From the NCBI GenBank assembly GCA_002010215.1, contig MTMY01000018.1, positions 1-47,133 of the forward strand: 47,133 nt of DNA, read 5' to 3'. Every line of letters starts with the position of its first letter. Within the stretch, counting starts at the first letter, position 1. This DNA is from Archaeoglobus sp. JdFR-37 (GTDB lineage Archaea; Halobacteriota; Archaeoglobi; Archaeoglobales; Archaeoglobaceae). A model generated the notes under the pieces. That model was not told where the DNA came from. It saw only the letters and a list, made by a program, of their open reading frames with translations, and did not search any database. Both the position numbers and the translations under genes were made by a program. Below, piece after piece: positions 45,674-47,133 of this stretch.

Positions 45674-46801
45674 TTATTCAGCCAACTTTATAGATGCTAT
45701 GCCGCTAAGGGCAAAGATGGCTGCAAATGTAAAGAAGACAGGGGCAAAACCAGCTACATCAATCAGAAATCCTGACAAAACGCCCGATATCACACTTCCA
45801 ACGTTGCCAGAAAATACGAGAAAGCCAGAAACGGATGCAGTGTTCTCTTCTCCAGCTATCTTTGTGGCCAGCCAATATGTTGCACCAACGCCAAACCTGA
45901 AGAAGGTTGAAGCGATGAAGAGGATTAAGATTGCCTGAAATAGGTTATGAGAAAAGGGCAAGGCTGCGAAGGATGCTGCAGCAAGCAGCTGGTTCCATGT
46001 TATAGTCTTTTTCGCCCCAAACCTTTCGGCAAAGATACCGCCAATAACTGCACCGATTACGCCGGACAAAGGGAAGATTGATGCATAGCCGGCTGCTTTA
46101 AGGGAGGAGACATCGAAGGTAGTGAGGTAGAGGGCAGCCCAGGTAAAGGTCCCAATCATGGCAAAGAAGACGGCAAACTGGGTAAAAGACAGTATAATAA
46201 TCCTCGAATCTTTTATGAAAGCAAAACTCCCACCTCCACCCTCCTCAGGAGCTTTAAGTGCAAGGACTATGGCTAACAAAAGCATTATAGCTGCTGGGAC
46301 ATAAAATGACAGTTCTATGTCATATTCTGCCAGAGTTTTTGCTAGAATGAAGGCTAGGGAGGTGCCTATGGGAACAGAAGAACCCAGCAGAGCTATAGCT
46401 TTGCCCCCTCCCTTTGAACTAATCTTCACCAGTGGACCCCAGCCAGTACTCTGCCCAATGCCGTTAATGAACATGCCTAAAACGATGGCTGGGAAAATCC
46501 ATGTTGTTACAACGAGATTCCCGACGGCGATAAGGAGCGCCCCAGTTGTTAGAACAATCTTAACACCAAATCTGTCTCCGAGAAAGCCTGAAGGCATCTG
46601 AAACAGCGTGTAAGCTAGGAAAAGTGATGAGGTAGCAATACCCATATGGGTGGCTGTAAATCCGTATTTCTCAATTATAGCAGGTATGAGGGCAGGGAGG
46701 TTCATTCTACCGAGATAGAAAAGAACATACACTGTCCAGGGTATGGCGATGTACTTAATGCTCCTCGCATTATTCCGCATAATTCTCACTGCCCTCGTCA
46801 C
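45674..46801 (-). CDS. MFS transporter (start 46801 or 46780)
   Basis: YLGRMNL, GFLGDRFG and GIFAERFG motif A copies, about 12 TM helices. Confidence 0.9.
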   Translation of the reverse strand: MTRAVRIMRNNARSIKYIAIPWTVYVLFYLGRMNLPALIPAIIEKYGFTATHMGIATSSLFLAYTLFQMPSGFLGDRFGVKIVLTTGALLIAVGNLVVTTWIFPAIVLGMFINGIGQSTGWGPLVKISSKGGGKAIALLGSSVPIGTSLAFILAKTLAEYDIELSFYVPAAIMLLLAIVLALKAPEEGGGGSFAFIKDSRIIILSFTQFAVFFAMIGTFTWAALYLTTFDVSSLKAAGYASIFPLSGVIGAVIGGIFAERFGAKKTITWNQLLAAASFAALPFSHNLFQAILILFIASTFFRFGVGATYWLATKIAGEENTASVSGFLVFSGNVGSVISGVLSGFLIDVAGFAPVFFTFAAIFALSGIASIKLAE

Positions 46802-46915
46802 CTTTACGGAATTTTGCTAAACTATGTACTTTTTAAAAGTATAGCGGATTGCTGATTTGTTTTAATTTTGATTAGAATTTGCTGATGATGCTAATGCTGA
46901 AATTAGCCTTTGCGA

Positions 46916-47047
46916 ATTTCAATCCTATAGTCTGATTTGAACTGCCTTTACAGCCTCTTCGACAAACTCAGGAATGAACAAGGGTTCGATAAACGGACGT
47001 GGCAGGTGATTTTTCACCTTTCAATCCTACAATAGTCTGATTTGAAC
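46916..47047 (-). CRISPR. CRISPR mini-array: two repeats and one 75-nt spacer
   Basis: Minus-strand repeat GTTCAAATCAGACTATTGTAGGATTGAAAG (47047-47018, 30 nt, ending in the ATTGAAAG handle). Degenerate copy GTTCAAATCAGACTA---TAGGATTGAAAT (46942-46916). Spacer at 46943-47017. Confidence 0.85.
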
Positions 47048-47133
47048 ACCCGTTAATATTCCCTCTTTCACAAACTTAAAGCTTTCTTACCCCTTCCCTT
47101 ATTTAAATAGTGTCAGGAACCCCAAATAATGTA
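47048..47133 (-). promoter_or_regulatory. CRISPR leader with BRE/TATA
   Basis: AT-rich non-coding segment. Minus-strand GAAAGC-TTTAAG (47086-47075) lies about 28 nt upstream of the intact repeat. Confidence 0.65.

Follow-up and report, generated by a model that had tools for sequence, protein, structure and literature searches.

Anatomy of the mini-array

The window, i.e. the whole stretch of 47,133 nucleotides analysed here, is the entire contig C14 of the Archaeoglobus sp. JdFR-37 assembly (G000; 52 contigs, 1.97 Mb, 94.5% complete), and the mini-array therefore sits at a contig end. It consists of a leader and two repeats flanking a single, unusually long spacer, and is followed on the same strand by the gene of an MFS transporter. 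The features are, in the order of reading:

47133..47048, minus strand: CRISPR leader, its 3' 86 nt, cut by the contig end (homology to the leaders of relatives)
47074..47088, minus strand: putative BRE/TATA, AAGAAAG CTTTAAGT, with the TATA starting 33 nt before R1
47047..47018, minus strand: R1, intact 30-nt repeat, GTTCAAATCAGACTATTGTAGGATTGAAAG, ending in ATTGAAAG (sequence reading and repeat search)
47033..47043, minus strand: repeat nt 5-15, AAATCAGACTA, 11 bp found as a duplication at the two ends of a mobile element in other populations
47017..46943, minus strand: 75-nt spacer (sequence reading)
47017..46980, minus strand: S1, proposed first half of the spacer, 38 nt (position of GTTCA)
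46979..46943, minus strand: S2, proposed second half of the spacer, 37 nt, starting with GTTCA (position of GTTCA)
46942..46916, minus strand: R2', 27-nt degenerate terminal repeat, GTTCAAATCAGACTATAGGATTGAAAT (sequence reading and repeat search)
46802..46915, minus strand: 114-nt intergenic stretch from R2' to the next gene, with a TATA-like TTTTAAAAA of its own and no T run of at least 5
45674..46801, minus strand: MFS transporter gene, downstream of the mini-array (Pfam MFS_1, E 2.3e-37)

R1 and R2' are alike at 26 of 30 positions, the 3-nt gap being counted. The degenerate repeat lacks three nucleotides (TTG or TGT) after about nt 15, and its last G is replaced by a T. Both repeats match C14 at these two places only, and no further repeat is found in the window or in the stretch of at least 198 nt that lies past the contig end. 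A preliminary description, made from the letters of the window alone, had reported two repeats, a leader and a 75-nt spacer; sequence reading and the repeat search bear it out on these points.

As in a canonical CRISPR array, at least two direct repeats of a known class surround a unique spacer. The length of this spacer departs from the canonical arrangement, with 75 nt as compared to 36-43 nt for spacers of the same repeat family (n = 55). An assembly artefact was considered and ruled out, as contigs assembled from single metagenome runs reproduce the structure with 0 differences: record 1 of X1 (23.6 kb) covers positions 46600-47062, and record 11 of X3, a run from another study, covers positions 46640-47133 and a further 198 nt past the contig end. 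The window may have been assembled from sample X1. No spacer has been added in the contigs of either run, and the locus is in this sense static. None of the runs listed for the locus is an RNA run.

A 6-bp hairpin (AGGUGA AAAA UCACCU) can form across the end of R1 and the initial 14 nt of the spacer (window 47003-47020, minus strand). Folded as a whole, the unit is unremarkable (z -1.5).

Leader, promoter and repeat family

The 86-nt leader shows 75-83% identity to the sequence located directly before the first repeat of long arrays in relatives. Six related leaders were aligned, and that of G020 was added later (7 in all). A GAAAGCTTTAAAT-like BRE/TATA occupies the same position in 7/7 of these homologous leaders, some 30 nt ahead of the repeat. 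The leader-repeat junction of the aligned leaders is marked by an AATATTA(A/C)CG motif. The BRE/TATA-bearing leader that had been proposed from the window alone is thus strengthened by the conservation of its motif and, as in a canonical array, a leader with a predicted promoter directly precedes the first repeat. The usual geometry of archaeal promoters serves to place the start site, and transcription would accordingly begin 2-7 nt before R1.

The full leader is about 284 nt long. The remaining 198 nt were read from record 11 of X3 and from L024 and L025, two large contigs (223 kb and 301 kb) of one metagenome that were found by an exact search with 44 leader nt. The homology of the leader to those of relatives reaches a conserved 5' motif (GTCGC..ATC.TTTTATT), and in G007, G021 and G032 cas1 is located roughly 0.85-1 kb from the matching place of the homologous leader. 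Judged from these sequence comparisons, the leader is genuine.

When compared to Rfam CRISPR-DR6, R1 gives a sub-threshold score (19.3 bits vs a gathering score of 39). The exact R1 sequence has 0 matches in the other species genomes of the genome_contigs collection and is the repeat of no assembled array, and variants of R1 with one change at nt 4 build arrays in Archaeoglobaceae/Archaeoglobales MAGs. In the metagenome runs, the words of the repeat (window 47018-47047) reach a depth of about 1e5 in X1 and X4, 3e4 in X3 and 1e3 in X2, and the spacers found between such repeats have a depth of 500-1100 in X1 and X4, as compared to 53-84 for the source genome. More abundant organisms with near-identical repeats are present in runs X1-X4.

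A site of another genome (G022:C62, L020, about 1480-1561) is made up of a homologous leader and one full repeat, followed by a direct duplicate of repeat nt 16-30, with a solitary CAAATCAGACTA about 190 nt upstream. This site looks like another collapsed array.

A second copy of the leader

The last 101 nt of C14, i.e. the leader and the first 15 nt of R1, are identical, in reverse orientation, to the start of contig C11. Besides the leader of the mini-array (copy A), the genome thus contains a copy B (C11:1-101, the same as L024:4001-4101), where only 15 nt of the repeat are left. In the metagenome, the block shared by both copies is 299 nt long (284 of leader and 15 of repeat), with 2 differences between the copies, and its depth in X1 is twofold that of its flanks (168 vs 84). 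It opens precisely with the conserved 5' motif of the leader, and it stops at repeat nt 15. Since its 5' boundary is the natural leader start, the two copies are read as two former array sites, both reduced.

The two sites have different neighbours, housekeeping genes in both cases: a group of radical SAM, QueC and PTPS genes on one side of copy A and MFS and THUMP-SPOUT genes on the other, LeuD/LeuB on one side of copy B and an AMP-binding enzyme on the other. Beyond the leader, C11 carries about 750 nt of non-coding DNA that is unrelated to C14 and for which no homologue was found in 91 genomes of the family. On the same contig, a 44-nt piece (C11:217-260) is 84% identical to the ends of C16 (9-52) and C10 (9-52), which suggests that it may be a fragment of a multi-copy element.

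Neither a leader nor an array precedes the orthologues of the MFS gene in G001 and G039. Some 50 nt ahead of the G039 orthologue, the stretch AAGGAAGTTCAAAT..AGAATCAG (G039:C3, L010, 1435-1470) weakly resembles the end of the spacer, the start of R2' and a decayed repeat (15/16, E 0.18), a likeness that may be due to chance.

A mobile element interrupts the first repeat in natural populations

In L025, foreign DNA of at least 3.9 kb (L025:4102-8044) sets in after the leader and 15 nt of repeat. In X4, the element extends over at least 8.2 kb (record 23, a contig of 8.25 kb). The left junction, taken as a 30-nt sequence, is present in L025 and in loose ends of X2 and X4; the right junction is located at the end of the X4 record 23 contig and leads into nt 5-30 of the repeat, then into the first 5 spacer nt. 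The element ends in imperfect inverted repeats of about 30 bp and has a copy of AAATCAGACTA (repeat nt 5-15) on either side. The R1 allele is uninterrupted in X1 and X3, and split in L025, X4 and X2. In X4, the two junctions have depths of about 57 and 70, the C14 flank a depth of 53 and the leader block one of 115, which suggests that most cells in this sample bear the interrupted allele. As R1 is split by a mobile element in natural populations, the locus is dispensable in nature.

The element encodes a 429-aa winged-helix protein with a weak PHROG similarity to replication initiators. Three of four element proteins have no Pfam family, none has an NCBIfam above cut-off, and two of them, searched against PDB sequences, gave no convincing match. 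Homologues of the Rep-like protein occur in 6/96 genomes of the class; no flanking repeat halves were found at the 5 homologue loci that were checked (in 4 of the 6 genomes with one, plus G071). Homologous element ends abut AAATCAGAC(TA) in G022, G032, G004 and G080, at loci L054 (G022:C121), L055 (G004:C33), L056 (G032:C1:1275560), L058 (G022:C120) and L059 (G080:C3); a reversed control pattern gave 0 matches for the right junction and 2 for the left one. On G022:C121, the flank is a CRISPR repeat (nt 5-30), which is followed by two spacers and repeats. The flanks in G032, G004 and G080 and on G022:C120 cannot clearly be assigned to a repeat. As the flank is clearly repeat-like only on G022:C121, the target of the element could be either the repeats or just an 11-bp word that repeats contain.

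Four breaks are found at repeat nt 15/16: (i) the left junction of the element, (ii) the end of the second leader copy, (iii) the gap of R2' and (iv) the half-repeat duplication of G022:C62. One possibility is that AAATCAGACTA would be a landing site of integrative elements of Archaeoglobaceae, with the mini-array, the stump of copy B and the gap of R2' as scars of erosion, in other words an anti-CRISPR effect by insertion. We regard this possibility as speculative and, on the whole, unlikely.

The locus was also compared to the mini-CRISPR arrays of viruses and plasmids, as they are presented in the available text of PMC6858448. Like these, it has 1-2 spacers, a leader-like region and no adjoining cas genes. 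Unlike these, it is surrounded by housekeeping genes of the chromosome, the contigs being 47 kb to 300 kb long, and the nearby mobile element is inserted into the array and is not its carrier. The flanks are chromosomal genes shared with relatives, and the intact allele is without the element, which sets the locus apart from a mini-array borne by a mobile element.

Search for cas genes and the long array of the same bin

Cas6, Cas1, RAMP, DevR and Cas2 have 0 matches in the 94.5%-complete G000, and the Cas3 core retrieves sub-cut-off helicases only. As a positive control, the searches for Cas6 and Cas1 match in 5/5 relatives, including G001, which belongs to the same genus. There are no cas genes beside either leader copy, the region checked for copy A extending over 47 kb in one direction and 4 kb in the other. 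The preliminary description had seen no cas genes in view and had proposed to look past position 47133: its observation holds in the window, and the next 4 kb upstream are devoid of cas genes as well. The cas genes of the source genome may simply be unbinned.

The same bin contains a contig of 3893 nt, C49, with 57 repeats and 55 spacers, the repeat differing from R1 at two positions. C49 and an array from another genus (G020:C18) have in common 27/55 spacers in the same order, the terminal repeat and an 88-nt trailer. The G020 array sits at the end of a 50.7-kb contig, and the genes beside it align with genomes of the G020 genus; G000 has its own copies of these neighbouring genes on C23, at about 70% identity. 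Because of the ordered spacers and trailer in common with G020, and of the separate copy at about 70% identity in G000, C49 is probably mis-binned and would come from another genus. If C49 is indeed foreign, G000 is left with no proven array except the mini-array. A long array in a metagenome bin can thus be that of another organism, and the presence of CRISPR is not safely read from binning alone.

Origin of the 75-nt spacer

The sequence GTTCA, with which the repeat opens, is present only once in the spacer; located at position 39, it divides the spacer into 38 + 37 nt. Among the C49 spacers, which are 36-43 nt long, 27/55 have 38 nt and 5/55 have 37 nt. By chance, GTTCA would fall on one of the roughly 4 suitable positions with a probability of about 0.4%, and this microhomology was noticed after the fact. 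The 75-nt spacer probably corresponds to two spacers (38 + 37 nt) joined by the loss of one repeat. By slippage, the GTTCA that opens the repeat would have paired with the GTTCA that opens the second spacer, and exactly 30 nt would have been removed. Such a fusion was one of three options of the preliminary description; it gains from the lengths of 38 and 37 nt and from the fit of the unique GTTCA, and its unfused allele (S1-repeat-S2) was not seen. As no allele with the halves separated by a repeat was seen, the fusion is deduced from the lengths and from one 5-nt microhomology.

The shuffle tests that follow, like the phage and plasmid blastn and the search of class genomes, were made with positions 46944-47017, i.e. 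74 of the 75 nt of the spacer. A degenerate middle repeat hidden in the spacer was rejected, as equal scores are obtained in 776/2000 shuffles and with 28/54 joined pairs of C49 spacers. The spacer was also considered as the source of a peptide: two of its six frames are open, but tblastn against the genome gave the spacer itself only.

The spacer and the leader resemble each other over their last ~30 nt. The local match (13/15) is equalled by 29/2000 shuffles and by 0/54 joined C49 pairs, and the anchored score by 0/2000 shuffles, the likeness having been seen after the fact. It hints at an origin that may be other than fusion: R2' and the 3' end of the spacer could be an old duplicate of the leader-repeat junction, in which case the 75 nt would partly be former leader. 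The alignment of the spacer end with the leader end, directly before each repeat, together with an anchored score that no shuffle attains, speaks for such a duplication. Against it, the likeness was found post hoc; it concerns a leader segment that is variable among relatives, and the junction has not retained the conserved AATATTAAC/CGG motif. Moreover, we know of no mechanism that duplicates the end of a leader together with a repeat, and we hold this origin to be very unlikely.

Targets of the spacer and the hypothesis of a regulatory RNA

Searched by blastn against phages and plasmids, the spacer gives chance matches only (E at least 2), and four 21-23-mers taken from it have 0 exact matches in viral contigs. 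It is absent from 95 other genomes of the class, where the best match covers 21/22 nt (E 0.002). The preliminary description had found no match to the spacer elsewhere in the window, and this extends to the whole genome, which has no second copy. The best ungapped matches across the genome (24/38 for S1 and 26/37 for S2, vs maxima of 23-25 for shuffled sequences) are at chance level. Finally, neither S1 and S2 nor the 55 spacers of C49 match the inserted element or the other loci examined. The search among viruses, plasmids and host sequences that had been proposed at the outset thus ended without a target.

A Cas-guided regulatory RNA had also been proposed. An RNA of the CreA/CreR type would guide a Cas effector to a partly matching promoter and repress a toxin or another gene. 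In the available text of PMC10120712 and PMC8501985, regulatory mini-arrays and CreA have two repeat-like sequences flanking one spacer, a degenerate distal repeat and their own promoter, and the authors propose that they derive from truncated arrays. The locus resembles many of them by its two repeats, of which the distal one is degenerate, and by its own predicted promoter. The mini-arrays described in these texts are near cas loci, have spacers of 15-60 bp and match a nearby promoter by their seed, and none of these features is found here. The 75-nt spacing is outside the 15-60 bp that define regulatory mini-arrays, which are moreover located in a CRISPR-cas locus and conserved (Shmakov et al., 2023), and the spacer is not conserved in relatives. 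CreTA is located within or immediately beside a cas operon; the mini-array is neither in nor beside a cas locus and has housekeeping genes on both sides. The CreA seed (spacer nt 1-5 and 7-11) is found nowhere else in the window, nor in 8 kb around each leader copy, and its 7 other matches in the genome are all inside ORFs of at least 100 aa; there is thus no PAM-flanked seed pairing in the promoter of an adjacent toxin. Finally, a CreA antitoxin is a small RNA processed by Cas6, and its loss is toxic in the presence of Cascade; here the insertion splits the array in natural populations, which an essential antitoxin should not tolerate. The CreA/CreR reading fails on every feature examined; it is not supported, and we consider it extremely improbable.

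A probable collapsed and orphan array

All our results lead us to propose that the locus is probably what is left, in an Archaeoglobaceae genome, of an ordinary CRISPR array that has collapsed and been orphaned. As no cas gene lies anywhere near the array, we regard it most likely as a leftover rather than a regulatory RNA. Among the options of the preliminary description, that of a decaying orphan array is thus the best-supported overall. An ordinary array would have been eroded to a leader of ~284 nt, one intact repeat, the 75-nt spacer and a degenerate terminal repeat, and the second site would have been eroded as well, to a leader and the first 15 nt of the repeat. The fused 75-nt unit would represent the former last two spacers of the array. 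Such a locus would take up no new spacers and would tolerate its interruption by a mobile element, and it would be inactive at present. A residual role in defence is possible only if cas genes are located in the unassembled part of the genome; in this case, the leader promoter could yield one crRNA with the first half of the spacer.

The identity of the leader copies is odd for old and useless DNA, and counts against a relic. This near-identity could result from a recent collapse, from gene conversion or from continuing selection.

An alternative is that the locus is a minimal array that still works. The cas genes would then lie in the unassembled 5% of the genome, Cas6 would cut R1 and perhaps R2', and the locus would provide a guide for defence. 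The processed RNA would carry AUUGAAAG as a 5' tag ahead of the initial bases of the spacer, and a complex of type III or type I would use the first 31-38 nt (S1), the excess being trimmed or tolerated. Several observations are in line with this alternative: R1 is intact and at most one change away from repeats that build long arrays within the family, the leaders are unmutated, with an intact promoter motif, and Cas6 and Cas1 are present in G001, of the same genus. It is at odds with the lack of any match to five cas families in G000, where the Cas3 core also has none above cut-off, and with the lack of a protospacer in phages, plasmids, viral contigs or 95 class genomes. Furthermore, no sample has an added spacer, R1 is interrupted in other populations, and its exact sequence is the repeat of no assembled array. 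A working array thus appears distinctly unlikely.

The collapsed array that we favour is reminiscent of CRISPR 3 of Pyrococcus abyssi, as it is described in the available text of PMC3124441. CRISPR 3 is silent and is called a relic; it is short, with degenerate repeats of the ATTGAAAG-ending 30-nt class and a leader like that of active arrays. The present locus differs from it by its one double-length spacer, by the intact-looking leader and promoter motif, and by the existence of a second leader with a 15-nt stump of repeat.

By itself, the locus is an ordinary relic, a result that does away with the tempting reading of a regulatory crRNA, which is unsupported. It also offers a clean natural case of a double-length spacer, which the loss of exactly one repeat would explain. 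The side observation made on the mobile element may outweigh the mini-array itself in importance: if this element does target repeats, it would represent a new route for disabling arrays.
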